From Maritalea porphyrae (GTDB lineage: Bacteria > Pseudomonadota > Alphaproteobacteria > Rhizobiales > Devosiaceae), in the NCBI RefSeq assembly GCF_027213965.1, contig NZ_JAPWGX010000002.1:538412-562411 (forward strand): a stretch of DNA of 24,000 bases. The letters are read 5' to 3'. The translations under genes and the position numbers were made by a program. Position 1 is the stretch's first letter. The number at the start of each line of letters is the position of its first letter. Of the stretch, positions 2,932 to 22,579 are shown in pieces. The notes beneath the pieces were generated by a model that ran no database searches, had not been told where the DNA came from, and was given only the letters and a program-made list of their open reading frames with translations.

Positions 2932-2982
2932 GATCCTTGAGGCGGAAGCTGACGGTTAATGATCAGCATGGCCCCTATTTGA

Positions 2983-4515
2983 TCAGTCAGCGATCATCCG
3001 CTTTAGCAATTCCACTTCTTGGGCGAAGCTATTGTCTTCCGACATCAATTGCTCAACTTTGCGCACCGCATGCAAAACCGTTGTATGGTCCCGGTTGCCG
3101 AAACGACGGCCAATTTCTGGCAGCGAGCGCGAGGTCAGCATTTTGGACAAATACATGGCGATTTGGCGCGGGCGCACAACAGAGCGCGAGCGACGTGAAG
3201 ACAAAAGATCGGGCTTTGACACTTTGAAGTGTTTGGCCACCATAATTTGAATTTCGTCGATCTTGATACGGCGCGTATCGCGGGTCCGCATCAAGTCGTG
3301 CAATGCTTTTTCGGCCAATTCAATGGTTACGGGTTCGCCTGTAAGCTGATTGGCCGCCACCAAGCGGTTAATGGATCCGTCAAGATCACGCCCGTGGGAA
3401 ATGACTTTCTTGGCCACATAATCGAGCACCTGGGTTGGAATATGCAGGCCCGGGTATTTTGCCAGAGCCTGTTCGGCACGTTTTTCAACGATGGCGCGGC
3501 GCAGATCTTCATCAAGTGAGCGAATGGGCACCACAAGGCCACCGGATAGACGTGAGCGCAACCGATCATCAAGCATATCAAGGCCATTCGGGGGAGCATC
3601 CCCTGCCACGACAACTTGCTTTGCGCCCGTAAGCAGCGCGCTAAGCGCTTGGCCGAATTCTGTAACGGACTTGCCTTGCAAGAATTGCATATCGTCGATG
3701 AGCAAAACATCAATGCCGCGCAGCCACTCTTTAAAGCTAATGGCGGACTGACGCTGTACCGCTGAAATGAAGTGATACATGAAATGGTCGGCGGTGAGAT
3801 AAACCACATTACGTGACTTATCTGCGCCACCGGCGGCCCATGCAATGGCGTTCAACAGGTGGGATTTGCCCAACCCAACTGATGAGTGAATATAAACGGG
3901 ATTAAAGGTGACAGAGTTCTGTGCCACCGCTTGAGCCACTTGTTTTGCGGCCCCCAATGCCATCTCGTTGGCGCTGCCAGCAACAAATGTGTCAAAGGTC
4001 AATTTTGGATCAAGTGCTGAGCCTGACAATGCGTCGCCCTGTTTTACACGCGCTGAGTGTTTGGCCCCAGTACGGATGGTGGCAGAAACGGTGGGCATTG
4101 GCGCCTTACGCTCTGCTGGCTCTTCAGCTTTTGGCGTTTGCTTGCTTTCAACCCGACCGTTCACGCGCACTGTGATTTGCAGCGTTTGAACATTTTGGTT
4201 TTCAGCTTGAAACGATTCGATGATCCGATCTTGATAATTGGACAAGATCCACGAGCATAAAAACCTTGTCGGTACAGAAAGGTGCGCCAGGTCCCCATCC
4301 AGCTCCACCAAATCCAGCCTTGCGAACCATGAACTAAATACGTCCTCCCCGACGCTTGCCCAAAGCCGCTTTTTCACTCGTGCCCATAGTTTTGAGTTAT
4401 CGCCCCCCGATAAATCCATTGCGCCCCCGCCTTGTTGGTTTTCAACCGCTGGCGTTGTGCTTTGATGTGTTGCAACATCTTCTTCTTTTTGCGCCAACAT
4501 TGTGAACTGATCCAT
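2983..4515 (-). CDS. dnaA: Chromosomal replication initiator protein DnaA
   Basis: ORF 2983-4545 begins at a GTG. I prefer the ATG at 4515 (MDQFTMLAQ...) because AAGAGG lies 5 nt upstream. ATG 4419 (MDLSGG...) is another option. Diagnostic features are LWARVKKRLWASVGEDVFSSWFARL in the N-domain, the AAA+ Walker A motif SSVGLGKSHLL, and the C-terminal DnaA-box-binding domain (RPRQIAMYLSKMLTSRSLPEIGRRFGNRDHTTVLHAVRKV). Confidence 0.95.
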   Translation of the reverse strand: MDQFTMLAQKEEDVATHQSTTPAVENQQGGGAMDLSGGDNSKLWARVKKRLWASVGEDVFSSWFARLDLVELDGDLAHLSVPTRFLCSWILSNYQDRIIESFQAENQNVQTLQITVRVNGRVESKQTPKAEEPAERKAPMPTVSATIRTGAKHSARVKQGDALSGSALDPKLTFDTFVAGSANEMALGAAKQVAQAVAQNSVTFNPVYIHSSVGLGKSHLLNAIAWAAGGADKSRNVVYLTADHFMYHFISAVQRQSAISFKEWLRGIDVLLIDDMQFLQGKSVTEFGQALSALLTGAKQVVVAGDAPPNGLDMLDDRLRSRLSGGLVVPIRSLDEDLRRAIVEKRAEQALAKYPGLHIPTQVLDYVAKKVISHGRDLDGSINRLVAANQLTGEPVTIELAEKALHDLMRTRDTRRIKIDEIQIMVAKHFKVSKPDLLSSRRSRSVVRPRQIAMYLSKMLTSRSLPEIGRRFGNRDHTTVLHAVRKVEQLMSEDNSFAQEVELLKRMIAD

Positions 4516-5304
4516 TTGTGCCTCTTGATATTTCAACCAACGCACCAGCCGCTTGTTTGGCGCGTTGGTCAGCTGATTATTCTACAATCAGACAAACCCC
4601 TAGCAGTCGCTGAAAGTATTCAACGCTACCATTTTTATGATTTACTTAGATTTTGACGCCAACTCGCGTCGTTTACTTTACTGGAAGTACGCTTGTTAGA
4701 CTGGCTAGCTGTGGTGGTGTGCAGATCTCGAATGGAAGACCGGAATTATTGCAATTACGCAGGTTTTCCTCTTAGCACACATCGTCAACGGCCCCCGTTT
4801 TTCTGTTCAACTCTTGGCAATACAAGGATCGCCACCAGCTCTTGTTCAATATGGGCAGTTTAGCCTTATTAGGGGACGCGTTTCAACTGGTGAATCATTT
4901 AAAAACCCTCTTGACTCTAGGGGGTGGATTTGGGTTGGCAAGCTACGCAGAATCTCGCCATTCTTAAGGGATTGGATTTGCTTAATGAATCCAAATTCAA
5001 GTGAAAAATGCCCTTCAAAAAAAAATTTACTTTTTGTTAAGGATCCCGGCATTTTGAACCATTTTGCGCATTTTCCGACGACCTACACCATCGAGTTAAG
5101 TACCTGAAATAAATGAATTTTTTCAAACTCCAAAATCACAATGTGACAAATTTATGAATAGATTCAAAGGGTTCAATTTAGACGTTAAGTTACGCAACAT
5201 GTGTCAATTAGAATGGAACAATAGATTCTTCGTCACGCTGCTTCCACGCCAATCCAAGCGAAGGAAGTGACCTCAGAATTCAGGCGTAAACGCTGTCACG
5301 CCAA
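4516..5304. promoter_or_regulatory. Long non-coding rpsT-dnaA spacer containing the dnaA promoter/leader, and possibly origin-like DnaA-box/AT-rich elements
   Basis: About 0.8 kb with no credible ORF. A very AT-rich tract spans roughly 4985-5215. AATCCA-type motifs occur at 4923-4931, 4971-4979 and 4987-4995. An inverted repeat CTGATT-N7-AATCAG lies at 4573-4591. Confidence 0.4.
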
Positions 5305-5334
5305 ACGCAAAAAGGCTGCCCTAAGGCAGCCTTT
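5305..5334 (-). terminator. Rho-independent terminator of rpsT
   Basis: The minus strand reads AAGGCTGCC-ttag-GGCAGCCTT followed by TTTTTGCGTTT, about 30 nt after the rpsT stop. Confidence 0.8.
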
Positions 5335-5363
5335 AAAATCGTCAGTCCAAGTAAAGCCAGGCC

Positions 5364-5630
5364 TTAAGCGCTTAGGGCTTTTACACGGTTAGAAAGACGT
5401 GAAATTTTGCGTGAAGCATGGTTCTTGTGAACGATGCCTTTTTGCGCTGCGCGCATAATTTCTGGTTGAGCAGCTTGCAAAGCCGTTTTGGCTTCGGCGC
5501 TATCGCCAGATGTGATTGCTTCTTCAACCTTACGGATGAATGTGCGCATGCGCGAACGACGGTTTTTGTTCACTTCGGTGCGGCGCTCAATTTTGCGAAC
5601 AGCTTTTTTAGCTGATGGAGTATTGGCCAT
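5364..5630 (-). CDS. rpsT: 30S ribosomal protein S20
   Basis: ORF 5364-5654. The true start is most likely the ATG at 5630 ([30 protein letters not shown]...), with an AGAGGA RBS 5-6 nt upstream. The length and basic composition are typical of S20. Confidence 0.95.
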
Positions 5631-5680
5631 GTGGTCCTCTTTGTGCCTATTCACTTTCTACCCGATGGCAGAATCGCGAA

Positions 5681-5707
5681 ATAAAAGCGGCGGCACCAAA
5701 GGCCGCC
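5681..5707 (-). terminator. Terminator-like hairpin between mutM and rpsT
   Basis: The minus strand reads GGCGGC-ctttggt-GCCGCC followed by GCTTTTATTT. It lies about 100 nt after the mutM stop and about 55 nt before the rpsT start. It could instead be an rpsT leader structure. Confidence 0.4.
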
Positions 5708-5805
5708 AGAAACTACGTTGGCCGGGTTATAGGTTGAAGATTGGTTTTGGTCAATAGGAAAAGCTTGCGAAATTGGCTGCAAGCCCCGGTGGAAGAGTCT
5801 TTTGG

Positions 5806-6687
5806 CTAGGTTTGGCAATTGGGACAGTAAAAGGTTGAGCGACCAGATTGTACAATTCGCGCGATGTTGGCTTTGCAATTTGGTGCAAGGCAGGGTTCAC
5901 CCTCTCGGCCATAGGCTTGGAAACGGTGTTGGAAATATCCCAACTCCCCGTCTGCATGCTTAAAATCCTTAAGCGTTGATCCACCCGCTGCAATCGCCTC
6001 GTTGAGCACTTGCACAATCGTTGGGGCGAGTAATTCCAACGCCTTTTTGGGTTTGCCGTCCGCCCTTACCAATGTGCCTATAGGACACCTGGGGTCGATC
6101 TTTGAAAGAAAGAGCGCTTCACACACATATATATTGCCCAATCCGGCCACATTACGCTGGTCGAGCAGTGCAGATTTGATGGGGGTTTTCTTATTTAGGA
6201 ATCGTTCGGCCAAATGCTGAGCGTTAAATTGATTGCCCAATGGCTCTGGCCCCATTTTGGCGAAATGGGGGCTCTCCTGTTCATCGTCAAACAGGTCCAT
6301 ATATCCAAACCGACGCGGGTCATTGTAAATAATGTCCACTCGCCCTCTTGTCGGGTGCACAACTTCTAGAATCACATGGTCATGTTTTTGCTGTGCCAAA
6401 GGCACGAATTTGCGGGCGGTGCCTTCAATCAATTCAGCGTTGATTTTGAAGCTGCCGCTCATGCCCAAATGGGCGAGCATATTGGTGCCAGACATGAGCG
6501 GCACGATTAGATATTTTGCACGGCGACGCAGCTGGCCGATCTGTTGACCTTCGAGCAACTCTTGAAAGCCGTCTGGAAATGGAAAGCGCAAATTTGGGCG
6601 ATTAAGCACAATGCGTTTGATCGTCGCCCCATCCATAAAGGGGGCAAGGCCGTTTTTGACCGTTTCAACCTCTGGCAATTCAGGCAA
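5806..6687 (-). CDS. mutM: Formamidopyrimidine-DNA glycosylase (Fpg/MutM)
   Basis: 293-aa ORF starting with the canonical MPELPEVETV. The C-terminal zinc finger is CLAPNCKANIARIVQSGRSTFYCPNCQ. Confidence 0.95.
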   Translation of the reverse strand: MPELPEVETVKNGLAPFMDGATIKRIVLNRPNLRFPFPDGFQELLEGQQIGQLRRRAKYLIVPLMSGTNMLAHLGMSGSFKINAELIEGTARKFVPLAQQKHDHVILEVVHPTRGRVDIIYNDPRRFGYMDLFDDEQESPHFAKMGPEPLGNQFNAQHLAERFLNKKTPIKSALLDQRNVAGLGNIYVCEALFLSKIDPRCPIGTLVRADGKPKKALELLAPTIVQVLNEAIAAGGSTLKDFKHADGELGYFQHRFQAYGREGEPCLAPNCKANIARIVQSGRSTFYCPNCQT

Positions 6688-12354: not shown

Positions 12355-12390
12355 GGGGTGCTAGCCTTTCGCTCAAAAAGGGGAAGGCAG

Positions 12391-13350
12391 ATGGACGAAA
12401 AAACATCAGTTGGCGTGATCGGCCTTGGCATTATGGGCCGAAGAATGCTTGAAGCCCTTTCAAGCCACGACAAGTTTTACGCAAGTCACATCTGGGACCC
12501 GAGCGCTGTTTCTGTGGCCAAAGCGACGCCCTTGGCACCTGAGGCGAGAGTTTGCGATAGCCCTGAGGCGGTGATTGAAGGCGCGAAGGCGATATATCTT
12601 GCCTGCCCGCCAGACCCGCGCCGGCTTTATGCCATGATCGCTGCGGATTGCGGCAAACCGCTTTTTTTGGAAAAGCCCTTGGGCATCAATATGGCCGCCA
12701 GCCGTTCGATGGTGCATCACTTGGAGAAGACACGGGTGCCAGCGGCGGTCAACTTCGTGCAGGCGACCGGAGAGCCTTTGGCCGCGATTAAGACCGCGCT
12801 GCAATCGGGCGAGATGGGTGATCTCGTTGGCATCGACATTGAAGTTTCTTATGCGCAATGGCCCCGACTTTGGCAAAAAGATGCCGCATGGCTCAAACTC
12901 AGATCCGAAGGGGGCATGACCCGCGAAGTGATCTCTCATTTCATGTTTTTTGCCGAGCGGCTTTTGGGCACCACTCATTTGAATTGGACAAGTCCCATTT
13001 TTCCAGATGAGACATTGTGCGAAACCAACCTTTCGGCCCGTCTTTTCAACCCCGACGGTTTGCCGCTGAATGTCTTTGCCAATGTGGGCGGCGCGCAGCC
13101 AGACAAGCAACGGGTGTTCGTAAAGGGCACAAAGAAGAGCTTTAAGGTTGAGCAGTTCAGCGAACTTTGGGTCAGTGAGGGCGATAGGTTTAGCCAGGTG
13201 GTATTTCCGTCTGACAATGCCCGCATTGATGGGTTGCATGTGCAATTAGATCATTTTGACAAATGCATACGCGGCGAACCTCATCTGCTGGCGACCATCC
13301 AAGAAGCGCTGAGTGTGCAGGAGAAGATTGAGGGGATGTTGGCGGGATAG
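12391..13350 (+). CDS. Gfo/Idh/MocA-family NAD(P)-dependent oxidoreductase
   Basis: ORF 12358-13350. The likely start is the ATG at 12391, preceded by GGAAGG. The Rossmann N-terminus is VGVIGLGIMGRRM, and the family EKP motif appears in LFLEKPLG. Confidence 0.75.
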   Translation: MDEKTSVGVIGLGIMGRRMLEALSSHDKFYASHIWDPSAVSVAKATPLAPEARVCDSPEAVIEGAKAIYLACPPDPRRLYAMIAADCGKPLFLEKPLGINMAASRSMVHHLEKTRVPAAVNFVQATGEPLAAIKTALQSGEMGDLVGIDIEVSYAQWPRLWQKDAAWLKLRSEGGMTREVISHFMFFAERLLGTTHLNWTSPIFPDETLCETNLSARLFNPDGLPLNVFANVGGAQPDKQRVFVKGTKKSFKVEQFSELWVSEGDRFSQVVFPSDNARIDGLHVQLDHFDKCIRGEPHLLATIQEALSVQEKIEGMLAG

Positions 13351-13452
13351 TTTCTCGCTGCGGAAAATCAGTCAAAAATACGAATGCTCATCAACCAAGT
13401 CAGCAGAGTCGCAAATTGTCTTAACCCAACACCTCTCTGTGTTAGAGTTAAC

Positions 13453-14772
13453 CTAACTGGCGGAGGTTGTTTCCTCAATCATTTTCTTCCGGTTCCATTC
13501 CGCTCTTGCGATAGATAGCCTTCTCGCATTATCGGTAGCAGCTGCATATTCTTCTTTCGAAGAATCTAGCTTATATCCCTGAAGCTGAATTCGTTCTACA
13601 CTCCCTGCGTCATGTAGATAGCCGTTGACGACTGCACCTTCAGGCGTCGTAGAAAAATTGTAAACACAAATTCCGCGCCTATCGGAAGCGTGGTCCCTAT
13701 ACTCTAAGAACATCTTCTGTTCGGTGTATGATACTTTATCAGACTTGTGAGAAATCGTTTCTGTCGAGCTTTCTAACTGACGCCCGTAGGAGCAGTTCCA
13801 GTTTACGATACCATCTAATTCTACTCCGTGTTCACGAAATGACACATGGAATACAGATTCGGATACCACATCGCCCGCTTGGTTTGTTCCCTCACAAAAC
13901 CACCACCCTTGGCGATCTGATATTTCAGAACCTGCTCTTAAGCTTCCATCTTTATAGTTTAGCTCCACATCTTCCTGCAAACGATATAGTGATAGAAGGC
14001 TGAAATAGCTCTCAAATAATTCGATTATGTTTGGGTCGTTTGACCTGAATAAACGACGATTTCGAAAGTTGTCTGAATGCAACCATCCAAAGACAACCTC
14101 GCGGTCATTTCCATATGAGTCAAAATCGAAGATTGTGAAATTCAGAACAGGTATATTGTGGCGGATTACGCGCGCGAAGTGGCGCGCGCTAGTTTCTTTT
14201 CCGTTCAGTAGTATTTTTATATTTTCGTATCTCTTACCGAAAAACTCATTATATGCAACAATGTCCGTCCAGACCTTCGCTTTTGATGACTTTTCGTCGG
14301 ACGTTAAAAAACTGATATAACTATCTAAACTTGCCTCATCCAAGGCGTTTGGATTACCGCTCGCAGTTTTGTAACCTACAAAAGTATTTCGCACCTCAGT
14401 TGCATGCTTTACACGTTGTTCGATATGATTGTAAAACGCATTGTCGCTTGTAAAGCACTGCAAAGTGGACGAGCTTTGAATCGCAGCCATTATTTGGTCA
14501 TGGCTTTCAATCACGCGATCCTGAGAAGATTTGTGAAAAAATGATGTGGTTATTTGATCTATAAACAATGCGCCAAGTAGCGAAATCATAATAACGCCAA
14601 GCTCAAGCGTTGTTTTTTCAATTTGCAAAGCCTGCGCCAGGCCATCTTTGTTAAATATAAACGCTATTAGACTGATCAGAACCAACAACAGCGAGATTGA
14701 CCTCGTAGCCAGCTCTGCCTTGTGGGATCGATCTGATTGAACAATTAGACTACTCGACGGTGGACGTGGCAT
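13453..14772 (-). CDS. Orphan hypothetical membrane-anchored protein (two N-terminal TM helices plus a ~360-aa soluble region) in a low-G+C islet
   Basis: 439-aa uninterrupted ORF. An AGGGT lies about 8 nt upstream of the ATG. Predicted TM helices are SISLLLVLISLIAFIF and LELGVIMISLLGALFIDQI. I recognise no catalytic or nucleotide-binding motif. The G+C content is markedly lower than in the flanks. Confidence 0.7.
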   Translation of the reverse strand: MPRPPSSSLIVQSDRSHKAELATRSISLLLVLISLIAFIFNKDGLAQALQIEKTTLELGVIMISLLGALFIDQITTSFFHKSSQDRVIESHDQIMAAIQSSSTLQCFTSDNAFYNHIEQRVKHATEVRNTFVGYKTASGNPNALDEASLDSYISFLTSDEKSSKAKVWTDIVAYNEFFGKRYENIKILLNGKETSARHFARVIRHNIPVLNFTIFDFDSYGNDREVVFGWLHSDNFRNRRLFRSNDPNIIELFESYFSLLSLYRLQEDVELNYKDGSLRAGSEISDRQGWWFCEGTNQAGDVVSESVFHVSFREHGVELDGIVNWNCSYGRQLESSTETISHKSDKVSYTEQKMFLEYRDHASDRRGICVYNFSTTPEGAVVNGYLHDAGSVERIQLQGYKLDSSKEEYAAATDNARRLSIARAEWNRKKMIEETTSAS

Positions 14773-14832
14773 GATATTACCCTAAAAAAGCCAAAGTATA
14801 TGGTGCATCACACCAGTAATAAAGATCAAATT

Positions 14833-15570
14833 TCACACCTTGGGTGGTTCGAAAACCTTTCGTGCTGTGCCATGTAACAACCAGCTTTTTCCACCTTCAA
14901 ACACCGCCGTTGAAAGCGGGTTGCCGTAGCCAGCGCCTGAATCCAAATTGATCCGGTTGCCATAATGGGTGGGTGCATCGATGGTTGTGTGGCCGTGCAC
15001 CACGAGCAATGGGTGGGGGGCGGTATGATCCAAGAAGCCTTCTCTTATCCATACAAGATCGTCGGGATGTTGATTTTCCAGATCAACACCTGGTCGAATG
15101 CCTGCATGAACAAACAGCACATCGCCGTGAATATGGGTGAGCGGCAGGTTGGTCAAGAAATCCAGATGTGTTTGTGGTACGGCCTTTTTTGCATCTTCGT
15201 GAATTTGAAATAGCCGGCTTTCACTGTGTACTTGCACGCCATAAGACGCCATGGTTTCAATGCCGCCGATATTTTTGTGGAACCAATCATATCCCGGTTT
15301 TAGGCGATAGTCGGTGCGGGGATAGTCTTCCAAAAACATGGTGAACATGCGGTCGTGATTGCCCAACAGGCAAGTCCAGTTTTTGCCCGACTGTACGCCA
15401 TTCATCAAAAGCTCAACAACGGCTTTGGAGTTTTCACCTCGATCTACATAGTCACCCAGAAAGACAATTTTTGCGTCCTTGCCGCCATCCCGCTCGATTT
15501 TTTCAAGCGTTGTGTGCAGCATTTCGAGTTGGCCGTGAATATCGCCAATGGCATAAATTGGATCAGCCAT
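14833..15570 (-). CDS. PPP-family metallophosphoesterase (serine/threonine protein phosphatase, PrpA/lambda-phosphatase-like)
   Basis: ORF 14833-15813 is over-extended through a repeat array. The real start is the ATG at 15570 (MADPIYAIGDIHGQ...), with a strong AAGGAG RBS. The PPP signature motifs are GDIHG, GDYVDRG, GNHD and VHGHT. Confidence 0.88.
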   Translation of the reverse strand: MADPIYAIGDIHGQLEMLHTTLEKIERDGGKDAKIVFLGDYVDRGENSKAVVELLMNGVQSGKNWTCLLGNHDRMFTMFLEDYPRTDYRLKPGYDWFHKNIGGIETMASYGVQVHSESRLFQIHEDAKKAVPQTHLDFLTNLPLTHIHGDVLFVHAGIRPGVDLENQHPDDLVWIREGFLDHTAPHPLLVVHGHTTIDAPTHYGNRINLDSGAGYGNPLSTAVFEGGKSWLLHGTARKVFEPPKV

Positions 15571-15591
15571 TTTTACTCCTTTTGGAAGAGA

Positions 15592-15624
15592 TTCAACAAC
15601 AAAAAGGGGCCAAGAGGCCCCTTT
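15592..15624 (-). terminator. Rho-independent terminator, probably ending the fabA-fabB transcript after the repeat array
   Basis: The minus strand reads AAAGGGGCC-tctt-GGCCCCTTT followed by TTGTTGTTG, so the stem plus tail run CCCCTTTTTGTTGTTG. It lies between the repeat array and the phosphatase start. Confidence 0.7.
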
Positions 15625-15639
15625 AGATTTTTCAATGCC

Positions 15640-15809
15640 GCCTTCGGCGCTTCCCCGGCACCCCCGAGTTTGCTTGCCGCCGTCGCGCCTTCGGCGCTTC
15701 CCCGGCACCCCCGAGTTTGCTTGCCGCCGTCGCGCCTTCGGCGCTTCCCCGGCACCCCCGAAGTTTTTTTCGCCGCCGTCGCGCCTTCGGCGCTTCCCCG
15801 GCACCCCCG
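15640..15809. repeat. GC-rich intergenic tandem repeat, 47-49 bp unit, about 3.6 copies
   Basis: Copies at 15640-15686 and 15687-15733 are identical (GCCTTCGGCGCTTCCCCGGCACCCCCGAGTTTGCTTGCCGCCGTCGC). The copy at 15734-15782 is a 49-bp variant (..CCCCCGAAGTTTTTTTCGCCGCCGTCGC). The copy at 15783-15809 is partial. Each unit contains a GCGCC-ttc-GGCGC mini-hairpin. Confidence 0.95.
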
Positions 15810-15855
15810 CCAATTGGTACCAGAAATGGGTTTCTAGTTTGGGGAACCCGAGAAA

Positions 15856-20449: not shown

Positions 20450-22579
20450 TTATTCTGCGTCTTCGCCTTCTTTGATTTCTTCACCAGTTTCCTGGTTTAC
20501 AACTTTCATGGACAAACGCACTTTGCCGCGGTCATCAAAGCCCATAAGTTTCACGTAAACTTTTTCGCCTTCTTTGATCACGTCAGTTGTTTTTTCAACG
20601 CGCTTATCGGCAAGTTGTGAAATGTGCACTAGGCCATCACGTGGACCGAAGAAGTTCACAAATGCGCCAAAATCAACGCATTTAACAACGGTACCTTGGT
20701 AAATTTCGCCAACTTCTGGCTCATCTGTGATCGACTTAATCCATTTAACCGCTGCGTCGATGGCTTTGCCATCGCTTGAAGCGATTTTGATGGTGCCATC
20801 GTCTTCGATGTTCACTTTAGCGCCGGTTTTTTCAACGATCTCACGGATCACTTTACCGCCGGTGCCGATCACTTCACGGATTTTGTCGGTTGGGATCTTC
20901 ATGGTTTCGATGCGTGGTGCAAACTCACCAACTTCATCACGTGCGCCATCAAGAGCTTTAGACATTTCACCCAAGATGTGATGACGACCTTCTTTGGCTT
21001 GTGCCAAAGCGGTTTTCATAATGTCTTCGGTGATGCCAGCGATTTTGATGTCCATTTGCAACGATGTGATACCATCAGAAGTACCCGCCACTTTAAAGTC
21101 CATATCGCCAAGGTGATCTTCGTCACCCAAGATGTCTGAAAGCACAGCGAAACGATCGCCTTCCATGATCAAGCCCATGGCAATACCAGAGACCGGACGA
21201 GGCATTGGAACACCCGCATCCATAAGCGCCAAAGATGCACCACAAACAGACGCCATTGAAGACGAACCGTTGGATTCTGTGATCTCAGAAACAATACGAA
21301 TAGTATAGGGGAATTCTTCAACACTTGGACGCACTGGGTTAATCGCGCGCCATGCCAATTTGCCGTGGCCAGTTTCGCGACGGCTTGTGCCGCCCATGCG
21401 ACCCGCTTCACCTACTGAGTATGGAGGGAAGTTATAGTGCAGCATGAAGTTGTTTTTGAACGTGCCATCAAGGCTGTCAACGAACTGCTCGTCGTCGCCT
21501 GTACCTAGCGTTGCAACAACCAAGGCCTGTGTTTCACCACGGGTAAACACGGCGGAACCGTGCGTACGTGGCAAAATGCCAGCTTCAGCAACGATAGGGC
21601 GTACTGTTGAAAGGTCACGACCATCAATACGCTTGCCTGTGTCCAAAACGCTCAGGCGAACAACTTGGGCTTGAAGTGATTTAAACACCGCGCCAATTGT
21701 TTCGTCTTTATAAGCTGGGGCTTCACCTTCAGCCGGCGCATAATGTGCTTTGACTTTGGCTTTGGCCGCATCAAGTGCAACGTAACGCTCTTGCTTTTCT
21801 GTGATTTGGTAAGCGGCACGAATGTCGTCTTCAACCAATTTAAGCATGTCTGCTTCTAGCGCTGAATTGTCTTCTGCTTCGAATTCACGTGGCTCTTTAG
21901 CCGCCAATTCTGCAAGCTTGATGATGGCGTCGATCACTTTTTGTGATTGCTCGTGGCCATACATAACCGCGCCAAGCATCTGATCTTCGCTCAATTCGCT
22001 GGCTTCTGATTCAACCATCAAAACAGCGTCTTGCGTGCCAGCCATAACCAGATCCAATTTTGAATCTGTTTCTTGCTCTGGTGCAAAGTTTAGAACGTAC
22101 TCGCCATCGATATAACCAACGCGTGCCGCACCAATTGGGCCCATGAATGGAATGCCCGAAATGGTAAGTGCTGCTGAAGCGGCGACCAAGCCAAGGACGT
22201 CTGGACGGTTCTCAAGGTCATACTGAAGTACGGTTACAACGATTTGTGTTTCGTGCTTATAGCCTGCTGGGAACAAGGGGCGGATTGGACGGTCGATCAA
22301 GCGACAGATCAATGTTTCCGCTTCTGTAGGACGGCCTTCACGTTTGAAGTAGCCACCCGGGATTTTGCCCGCGGCGTAGAATTTTTCTTGGTAGTTTACC
22401 GTCATCGGGAAGAAGTCGACGCCCGGTTTTGCAGATTTGGCTGAAACAACAGTTGCCAAAACAACGGTTTCGCCAAGGGTTGCTAGAACAGCACCGTCTG
22501 CCTGACGTGCCATTTTGCCTGTTTCAAGGGTCAGCGGTTGGCCGCCCCAGTTTAGTTCCACCTTATGGTGATCAAACAT
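20450..22579 (-). CDS. pnp: Polyribonucleotide nucleotidyltransferase (PNPase)
   Basis: 709-aa ORF with two RNase PH-like domains, a KH domain ([15 protein letters not shown]) and an S1 domain ([20 protein letters not shown]). The rpsO-pnp pair is conserved. Confidence 0.96.

Follow-up and report, generated by a model that had tools for sequence, protein, structure and literature searches.

A solitary two-helix membrane protein of Maritalea porphyrae with a predicted TrmB-like module, possibly an anti-phage sensor-effector

Two-transmembrane (2TM) effectors combine a membrane-spanning element with an interchangeable receptor, which may be a beta-barrel, a SAVED domain or a CARF domain. Their logic is established, with Cap15 activated by its ligand and OptE inhibited by its ligand (PMC12657218). 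The effector-binding domain (EBD) of TrmB, an archaeal chromosomal regulator, is built from an eight-stranded sheet flanked by helices, a hinge and a flattened seven-stranded barrel, and holds its sugar in the cleft (PMC4158304). Here we describe a 439-amino-acid (aa) protein encoded in a 24,000-nucleotide (nt) stretch of the Maritalea porphyrae genome (contig NZ_JAPWGX010000002.1, positions 538,412 to 562,411; hereafter 'the window', with coordinates counted from its first letter). By sequence, it is a member of neither the Cap15/OptE class nor the TrmB family; by analogy, it may work like the first, with a sensor whose predicted structure looks like the second.

At minimum, the protein represents an undescribed family. 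We favour, with a probability of about 0.4, a reading in which the gene is accessory, was acquired horizontally and specifies a self-contained sensor-effector of the conflict type, tethered to the membrane and most likely acting in anti-phage abortive infection. We infer the defence function from two things, genomic context and architecture; if the inference holds, the protein would be a 2TM ligand-receptor effector that acts alone and carries a new receptor fold.

The protein family and its predicted structure

The gene and the predicted parts of its product are as follows.
13453 to 14772, minus strand: 439-aa open reading frame (ORF), member of a rare, unannotated family with a 2TM element and a predicted TrmB-EBD-like module (ORF call, homologues, AlphaFold2, Foldseek)
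14773 to 14832, minus strand: 60-nt upstream spacer, with a weak hairpin (14801–14815) and a T-run past the stop codon of the phosphatase gene, then the AGGG ribosome-binding site
14635 to 14718, minus strand: predicted transmembrane (TM) helix 1, aa ∼19–46 (Kyte-Doolittle maximum 2.31; AlphaFold2 helix 8–40)
14536 to 14616, minus strand: predicted TM helix 2, aa ∼53–79 (hydropathy 1.87; continuous AlphaFold2 helix 53–100)
14473 to 14535, minus strand: predicted cytoplasmic stalk helix, the extension of TM helix 2 to aa ∼100 (AlphaFold2)
13978 to 14472, minus strand: predicted alpha/beta sub-domain, aa ∼101–265, with a phospholipase D (PLD)-like fold that lacks the HKD motif (Foldseek, conservation)
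13567 to 13917, minus strand: predicted beta-barrel sub-domain, aa ∼286–402, with nine consecutive antiparallel strands (AlphaFold2, Foldseek)
13459 to 13533, minus strand: predicted C-terminal helix, aa ∼414–438 (AlphaFold2, predicted local distance difference test (pLDDT) ∼75–84)

An earlier note, made from the letters of this stretch without database searches, had singled out one long, unbroken ORF on the minus strand, and the ORF listing of the window agrees: the frame is uninterrupted and begins with ATG. The start call is supported by the N-terminal MxxPPxS of the protein, which aligns with the N-termini of homologues, and the AGGG ribosome-binding site lies 7 nt upstream of it. No clear promoter of the gene's own was found in the 60-nt spacer. 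The protein is 100% identical to a M. porphyrae 'hypothetical protein', and this exact sequence is carried by one genome only.

More distant relatives are numerous. A word-indexed search of 5.8 billion proteins returned 11 relatives at 28–52% identity, and an exhaustive HMMER scan of 1.84 billion cluster representatives returned 202 representatives at E≤1e-3, of which 82 reach E≤1e-10. Nearly all HMMER relatives are 420–480 aa long and align end to end with the same architecture. The clusters are almost all metagenomic singletons; the named members come from Maritalea, Mesobaculum, Tateyamaria, an uncultured Roseobacter and a Blastocatellia metagenome-assembled genome (MAG). Family-wide statistics and library scans below refer to 111 full-length members. 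A pattern-seeded locus search with the close alignment yielded only Mesobaculum and two short metagenome contigs. Searches of phage and plasmid sequences with tblastn (50,697 phage and 72,556 plasmid records, the latter with four divergent members) and a scan of IMG/VR were all empty.

The earlier description of the protein as an orphan holds in the sense of annotation. The query has no match in Pfam, NCBIfam, PADLOC-DB v2, PHROGs or the sequences of the Protein Data Bank (PDB), and the 111 members give only scattered, single-member chance matches to Pfam, PADLOC and PHROGs. Neither a full-length profile nor a profile of the soluble domain finds anything meaningful among PDB sequences, and the atypical members P0132, P0092, P0060 and P0087 carry no Pfam fusion domains. 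With ∼200 divergent members and no Pfam, NCBIfam, PADLOC or PHROG model, the family lends itself well to the definition of a new domain.

The same searches bear on whether the ORF is functional at all. The view that the ORF is a degenerating relic, or arose by chance in foreign DNA rich in A+T, can point only to the presence of this exact sequence in a single genome. However, low G+C makes long chance ORFs less likely, not more, the start codon and ribosome-binding site are intact, the fold is predicted with confidence, and full-length conservation with invariant motifs extends over ∼200 divergent homologues. This family conservation effectively refutes a non-functional ORF, which we regard as scarcely conceivable.

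AlphaFold2, run with the 111-sequence alignment, gave a model with a pLDDT of 88.1 and a predicted template modelling score (pTM) of 0.80. Its elements run in the order helix 8–40, short loop, helix 53–100, alpha/beta sub-domain ∼101–265, linker, nine strands ∼286–402 and helix 414–438. The earlier note had placed two N-terminal TM helices at aa 25–41 and 56–73, followed by a mixed alpha/beta region and a beta-rich region; the model reproduces each of these, with somewhat different helix limits. Two strong hydrophobic segments are present in 88 of the 111 members. The N-terminal tail is net positive across the family (K+R 2.6 versus D+E 0.9), and acidic residues outnumber basic ones in the short loop between the helices (family median length 12 aa; K+R 1.2 versus D+E 2.1). 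The positive-inside rule therefore predicts that the N-terminus, like all of the soluble module, faces the cytoplasm. Sequence and model thus describe a predicted N-in/C-in two-helix membrane hairpin, with an external loop of only ∼12–16 residues. The TM region is poorly conserved, and the soluble module is the conserved part of the family. The C-terminal helix is likewise poorly conserved in sequence, and the tail varies in length family-wide (median 44 aa).

Structural searches of the soluble module point to TrmB. The top Foldseek match is the TrmB sugar-binding domain (2f5t_X, E 4e-7), whose 317 aligned columns cover both sub-domains; full-length TrmB (3qph_A, E 4.6e-6) and TrmBL2 (E 4e-6 to 1e-5) also match. 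Individual sub-domains have further relatives. The alpha/beta sub-domain matches Zucchini (4gem_B, E 3e-5, TMt 0.54), NucT (6ehi, E 6.5e-5, TMt 0.58–0.61), vaccinia F13 (9fhk_A) and PLD (1v0t), and the barrel matches lipocalins, hemophilin and the Cap15 receptor (7n34, TMt 0.59–0.60, E 4e-3). A library of viral structures (BFVD) places an S-2TMbeta (Cap15-class) effector first (E 1.5e-4) and a phage NucT-like nuclease next. The Pfam family Regulator_TrmB belongs to Pfam's PLD clan, which would explain the matches to PLD nucleases. With a first model, made from a shallow alignment, lipocalin-type barrels (the Cap15 receptor among them) and PLD-fold proteins had come up as separate matches. The view favoured after that model, of independent PLD and lipocalin/Cap15 domains, was dropped, as the deeper model fits a TrmB module far better.

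The model thus shows a predicted two-lobed, TrmB-type cytoplasmic module, alpha/beta sub-domain plus barrel, whose best structural match is the TrmB ligand-binding domain. It shares with the TrmB EBD (PF11495, 2F5T/3QPH; TrmBL2, 5BPD/5BPI) an alpha/beta sub-domain, a short hinge and a flattened beta-barrel in the same order, as published for TrmB (PMC4158304). In both, helices flank the alpha/beta sheet, one helix crosses it, a long helix precedes the module, and the domain appears non-catalytic. Unlike the TrmB EBD, the family has no detectable sequence similarity to PF11495 (no match at E≤10 for the query, none at E≤0.01 for the 111 members). The winged-helix DNA-binding domain of TrmB (PF01978) is replaced by the two-helix membrane hairpin, and neither the query nor the 111 members match a helix-turn-helix Pfam family. 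The family is bacterial and borne on mobile elements, in contrast to the archaeal, chromosomal TrmB.

Column statistics across the 111 members identify 16 positions conserved in at least 90%. G229, G289 and W291 are invariant, and N129, T130, Y152, W168, D170, R181, N211, F212, W230, F253, G367, Y371 and G384 make up the remainder. The alpha/beta sub-domain carries the family signature KNTF, WxD, R181, PxxNF and FGW, and the barrel holds the invariant G289 and W291 together with the conserved G367, Y371 and G384. N211 is conserved in 98% of members, H198 in 74% and H205 in less than 60%; no column of Lys, Ser or Cys is conserved. The set of Asn, Asp and Arg residues with four aromatics suggests a ligand pocket, often of the carbohydrate or nucleotide type. 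N129, T130, Y152, W168, D170, R181, N211, W230, W291 and Y371 are candidate residues, suggestive of sugar binding in the cleft between the sub-domains.

The match to PLD-fold proteins also raises the possibility of a divergent catalytic member of the PLD superfamily, a membrane-proximal phospholipase or nuclease with a non-canonical site formed by residues such as N211, D170, R181 and H198. The alpha/beta sub-domain indeed shares its fold with NucT, Nuc, Zucchini and F13 (TMt 0.54–0.61) and with the phage NucT-like nuclease, N211 is nearly invariant, and one member, P0132, has this sub-domain in tandem, like the two-HKD enzymes. F13 itself carries an NxK variant of the motif. However, the family adds a barrel and a TM hairpin to this fold and retains no conserved His or Lys anywhere, the catalytic HxK(x)4D motif is not conserved in the 111 members, and none of them has a PLDc-type Pfam match. 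The non-catalytic TrmB domain also scores better, over the full module. We consider a PLD-type enzyme very unlikely. A catalytic HKD enzyme proper was rejected on column conservation (no Lys column, H205 <60%), in keeping with the earlier note, which had seen no catalytic signature and had called the soluble part sensor-like; a predicted TrmB EBD fold without a catalytic motif fits that description. From the alignment, N211-F-T...D216 and G229-W-L-H232 probably lie on a strand-turn-strand element equivalent to HxK(x)4D...GSxN; there, the family seems to have Asn in place of the nucleophilic His of PLD and to have lost the Lys.

One relative departs from the common architecture. P0132, from the Blastocatellia MAG, is 656 aa long; after its two TM helices, the alpha/beta sub-domain occurs twice in tandem, with the PxxNF...FGW signature in either copy. 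The C-terminal region differs from that of the other members and does not appear to be the barrel; P0132 has no Pfam or PDB sequence match.

Genomic setting in Maritalea and in relatives

The gene fills a slot between two conserved genes of the Maritalea core genome.
13351 to 14832: lineage-specific islet filling a variable slot between the Gfo/Idh/MocA and metallophosphatase genes (blastn breakpoints, unlike slot contents, G+C 0.39–0.46)
12358 to 13350, plus strand: Gfo/Idh/MocA oxidoreductase (Pfam PF01408), conserved right-hand boundary of the slot, syntenic in L012–L014
14833 to 15570, minus strand: metallophosphoesterase of 245 aa (Pfam PF00149), conserved left-hand boundary of the slot, syntenic in L012–L014

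As described earlier, the Gfo/Idh/MocA gene ends at 13350 and is convergent with the 439-aa gene, and the phosphatase gene lies 60 nt upstream on the same strand. The true start of the metallophosphoesterase is MADPIY at 15570, and its orthologues are 242–246 aa long.

The islet differs in composition from its surroundings. The ORF has a G+C content of 0.428 and a third-position G+C (GC3) of 0.42, versus 0.49–0.55 and 0.46–0.61 for the 15 remaining window ORFs that reach 200 aa. In 400-nt windows, G+C is 0.39–0.46 over 13.2–14.8 kb, versus ∼0.51 for the window as a whole, and the global minimum of 1320-nt windows falls within the ORF (z = −3.87 against non-overlapping windows). Codon usage follows suit: the correlation of relative synonymous codon usage (RSCU) with the pooled other genes is 0.167, versus 0.54–0.88 for each of the 15 others. 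The atypical composition and codon usage of the ORF are thus real and significant. The earlier note had put G+C at about 40% from hand counts, which was right in direction and size and slightly too low.

Comparison with related genomes places the gene in a polymorphic position. Through the adjacent metallophosphatase gene we found three orthologous loci (L012–L014), from a metagenomic Maritalea (81% identity), M. myrionectae and M. mediterranea (L014). The order fabA-fabB-phosphatase-[slot]-Gfo/Idh/MocA-thiF-DUF2259-dut-coaBC-ubiB is kept in all three, and the 439-aa gene is missing from the slot in all three. Two of these loci hold a 137-aa glyoxalase-like gene instead, and the third holds three small unannotated ORFs. 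Homology to the three loci by blastn stops at 13346 and restarts at 14893; tblastn finds no remnant of the family gene in the slots of the relatives and no trace of their slot genes in the window. Horizontal acquisition of the 439-aa gene, proposed in the earlier note as the origin of a single-gene islet, is supported because the gene is not universal at this position and its G+C departs from the background. No tRNA, Rfam family or integrase is present in the window, and the flanking direct repeats are short chance matches only; the earlier note had likewise seen no integrase, tRNA or flanking direct repeats. The acquisition mechanism left no recognisable scar at the M. porphyrae locus. At this locus, the Maritalea core genome has a small slot whose cargo is exchanged. 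An operon with the upstream phosphatase gene was considered and dropped, since that gene is core and syntenic in relatives lacking the 439-aa gene, and any co-transcription is therefore incidental.

The Maritalea core block has more than one spot at which cargo is exchanged; the slot studied here holds three alternative contents. A MerR gene and a gene for a 139-aa membrane protein lie between fabB and the phosphatase gene in L012 only, and a PhzF gene lies between fur and fabA in L013 and L014 only. The variable spots are at 5086–5932 and 6745–7981 in L012, and at 2935–3775 and 6753–7169 in L013/L014.

Elsewhere, members of the family occupy mobile and defence-rich settings.
L001 (Mesobaculum): directly downstream of a Tn7-like module (TnsB-like, TniB, TniQ) and a KptA/Tpt1-like gene
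L002: adjoins a tyrosine integrase and an IS91 transposase
L003: adjoins GmrSD
L007: between an AAA/DUF6414 pair, a Lit-type Peptidase_U49 and a large serine recombinase
L008: NERD, SNase, ankyrin and UmuDC genes nearby
L009: IS21 and DDE transposases on the flanks
L010: RadC / N6_N4 methylase / DUF6961 region
L017 and L018: fixed position in a mobilizable element, MobC-relaxase-type IV coupling protein (T4CP)-DUF7678-...-gene-resolvase

In L017, the genes after the family gene encode a methylase, an HNH protein, a VWA-PP2C-Ser/Thr-kinase triad, which we take to be TerY-P-like, and a Lit-like protein. The cargo that follows the family gene in L018 comprises a complete type II CBASS (cyclic-oligonucleotide-based anti-phage signalling system; CD-NTase, E1, JAB, Saf_2TM-SAVED), a Lit-like protein and Fic; this CBASS is a separate operon with its own effector. 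PADLOC, applied to 78 neighbour proteins, found Lit in three loci, methyltransferases and CBASS E1-E2. An all-versus-all comparison of these 78 proteins found none common to independent loci once the Lit-like module and the backbone shared by L017 and L018 are set aside; the family gene thus has no obligate partner. In 10 of 11 loci, the gene has a higher A+T content than its flanks (e.g., G+C of 0.42 versus 0.62 and 0.40 versus 0.55). These data show that the protein family is real and conserved and that its genes are foreign in composition to the genomes that carry them; in the relatives, the genes are solitary mobile-element cargo beside known defence genes, with no conserved partner.

Such contexts could also mean that the protein serves the mobile element itself, as an entry or surface exclusion factor, as an addiction or toxin-like stabiliser, or as an anti-defence factor. 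The gene's fixed position between the relaxase/T4CP/DUF7678 genes and the resolvase gene in two elements, its presence in or beside Tn7-like, IS91, IS21 and serine-recombinase elements at other loci, and an inner-membrane location that suits exclusion proteins would all agree with this. However, the M. porphyrae gene persists alone, with no element around it, and the elements are mutually unrelated, whereas exclusion factors are tied to a cognate transfer system. Nor, to our knowledge, do the known exclusion or addiction proteins contain a large conserved module that resembles a ligand-binding domain. A function for the element is in our view quite unlikely.

In Mesobaculum littorinae (L001, 2088–9603), the family gene is cargo of the Tn7-like element (Mu-transposase_C/TniB/TniQ), immediately after the KptA/Tpt1-type RNA 2′-phosphotransferase gene and overlapping a downstream 88-aa ORF. 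L017 (15517–19092) and L018 (13525–18032) are related integrated mobilizable elements with different defence cargo at the same place. The Lit-like Peptidase_U49 gene lies 2.5–9 kb from the family gene in three loci (L007, 7219–8873; L018, 18183–19915; L017, 20229–21203). At two of them, L007 and L018, a convergent gene for a ∼240-aa protein (37% identity between both loci) accompanies it; the pair may represent either a Lit-type module of two genes or cargo that related elements have in common.

A tentative function and its rivals

In the sensor-effector that we favour, a small molecule (a sugar- or nucleotide-like metabolite that shifts on infection) or a phage product would bind in the cleft between the two sub-domains. 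Binding would alter the conformation or oligomeric state of the module, and the change would be passed on via the stalk helix of TM2. The TM hairpins would then come together as an oligomer that disrupts the membrane, halting growth of the infected cell. Signalling might run with either polarity, ligand-activated as in Cap15 or ligand-inhibited as in OptE. The logic is borrowed from these two proteins; a TrmB-like module would take the place of the beta-barrel, SAVED or CARF receptor, and the protein would act without a dedicated signal synthase.

A more specific and more doubtful version is that the family forms an unrecognised class of solitary immune sensor-effectors, in which an ancient TrmB-type module, so far known solely from archaeal transcription factors as their sugar sensor, has been placed on a TM hairpin, where it monitors a cytoplasmic metabolite and kills or arrests the cell via the membrane. 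The metabolite would be a sugar, a sugar-nucleotide or a nucleotide-derived molecule that the phage makes, consumes or sequesters. Such a protein would be a one-protein counterpart of the Cap15/OptE effectors, sensing the metabolism of host or phage where those effectors sense a cognate second messenger.

The S-2TMbeta effectors Cap15 (CBASS) and OptE (Panoptes) resemble the family in their N-terminal two-pass TM element and cytoplasmic receptor domain, in the superposition of the predicted barrel on the Cap15 receptor, and in their mobile, defence-rich contexts. They differ in several respects. In the 439-aa family, a stalk and an additional ∼165-aa PLD-like sub-domain separate the TM hairpin from the barrel, and the S-2TMbeta models of Pfam and PADLOC give no match. 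The family gene is solitary, with no CD-NTase/SMODS or mCpol synthase gene in the window or adjacent in 10 loci, and the Foldseek E-value for Cap15 is much weaker than for TrmB. Saf_2TM-SAVED (Cap14) and the 2TM-CARF/SAVED proteins share the principle of a 2TM element with a cytoplasmic second-messenger sensor (PMC12657218), and one such CBASS effector is encoded 2.2 kb from the family member in L018. However, their sensor is a Rossmannoid SAVED/CARF domain rather than a PLD-like sub-domain with a barrel, they are always operonic with a synthase, and the 439-aa family lacks a Saf_2TM Pfam match.

The earlier note had likened the protein to SLATT-type 2TM modules. Two TM helices and an association with conflict systems are indeed common to both. 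In contrast, SLATT is the TM effector domain itself and is usually operonic with, or fused to, nucleotide-signal enzymes, whereas in the 439-aa family conservation is concentrated in the soluble module. The comparison fails at the level of sequence, as none of the 111 members matches SLATT at E≤0.01. Membership in SLATT or Saf_2TM was rejected, with no SLATT, Saf_2TM or S-2TMbeta Pfam match among them. The closer analogues are the 2TM-plus-ligand-receptor effectors of the Cap15/OptE class.

The predicted fold is also open to a non-immune interpretation, in which the protein is an accessory, membrane-tethered metabolite (sugar) sensor. Here, the TrmB-like domain would bind a carbohydrate or related metabolite at the inner face of the membrane and modulate a transporter or envelope process, or sequester a partner, and a niche-specific metabolic benefit would be spread by mobile elements. 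The nearest structural relatives, TrmB and TrmBL, are sugar-responsive regulators (Foldseek; PMC4158304), the conserved Trp/Tyr/Asn/Asp/Arg set is typical of carbohydrate pockets, and the neighbours in the window are metabolic or housekeeping genes. The archaeal arCOG03414 proteins (Mefer_1301-like), compared by description only, offer the nearest precedent that we found: this membrane-associated family is reported to contain a region resembling part of the TrmB sugar-binding domain and is tied to glycosylation and polysaccharide genes (PMC5898192). Unlike the present family, they are archaeal and linked to Wzy-like polymerase genes, and they are not mobile-element cargo. Four observations speak against a metabolic sensor: the TM hairpin is the sole output domain, no transporter, glycosyltransferase or regulator recurs beside the family genes (78 neighbour proteins), mobile-element and defence genes dominate the contexts, and the distribution is extremely patchy, consisting of singletons. 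We regard a metabolic role as rather unlikely.

Several points weigh against an immune sensor-effector. The family has no sequence-level homology to any defence family, with 0 consistent PADLOC matches among the 111 members, and no signal-producing partner gene is present. The M. porphyrae gene stands alone in the core chromosome, in the dnaA / fabAB neighbourhood, with no defence island. The contextual evidence is a plain tally of ∼10 informative neighbourhoods, in which L017 and L018 represent the same element type. TrmB-type domains are known as metabolic sugar sensors, not as immune receptors, and we found no paper linking TrmB-like domains with anti-phage systems. The TrmB match is at the level of fold only, the PF11495 and soluble-domain profile searches being empty, and the first, shallow-alignment model did not rank TrmB at all. 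Absence of the family from the phage, plasmid and IMG/VR collections may be listed here as well; it shows thin data and weighs little.

If the immune sensor-effector reading is correct, the TrmB-type module would join the beta-barrel, SAVED, CARF and STING domains as sensors that gate two-helix immune effectors. An effector working without its own signal synthase would raise the question of which metabolite reports infection. The TrmB effector-binding module would also prove portable, and used outside archaeal transcription control.

Other features of the window

A second patch of low G+C (4546–5363, 0.38–0.40) was considered as another islet and rejected. It is the ∼820-bp intergenic region between dnaA (2983–4545, minus strand) and rpsT (5364–5654, minus strand), and may be a dnaA promoter or an origin-related region. 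No DnaA boxes of the E. coli type (TTATCCACA, with at most one mismatch) occur in 4546–5363; the consensus used is that of E. coli.

The PNPase gene (20450–22579) ranks second from the bottom in GC3 (0.46), and no other core gene has as low an RSCU correlation (0.54). Because the gene is syntenic in all relatives, this deviation probably reflects expression-level codon bias rather than foreign origin.

The intergenic region between fabB and the phosphatase gene (15591–15828) contains a G+C-rich, 47-nt tandem repeat in four copies, two of them identical and two at 70–74% identity. A hairpin with 21-nt arms precedes the repeat and resembles a bidirectional terminator. The repeat gives rise to spurious GVPGKRRRRDGG repeats in a long, TTG-initiated ORF (14833–15813). 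A 38-nt piece of this intergenic region matches the equivalent region of M. mediterranea (L014).

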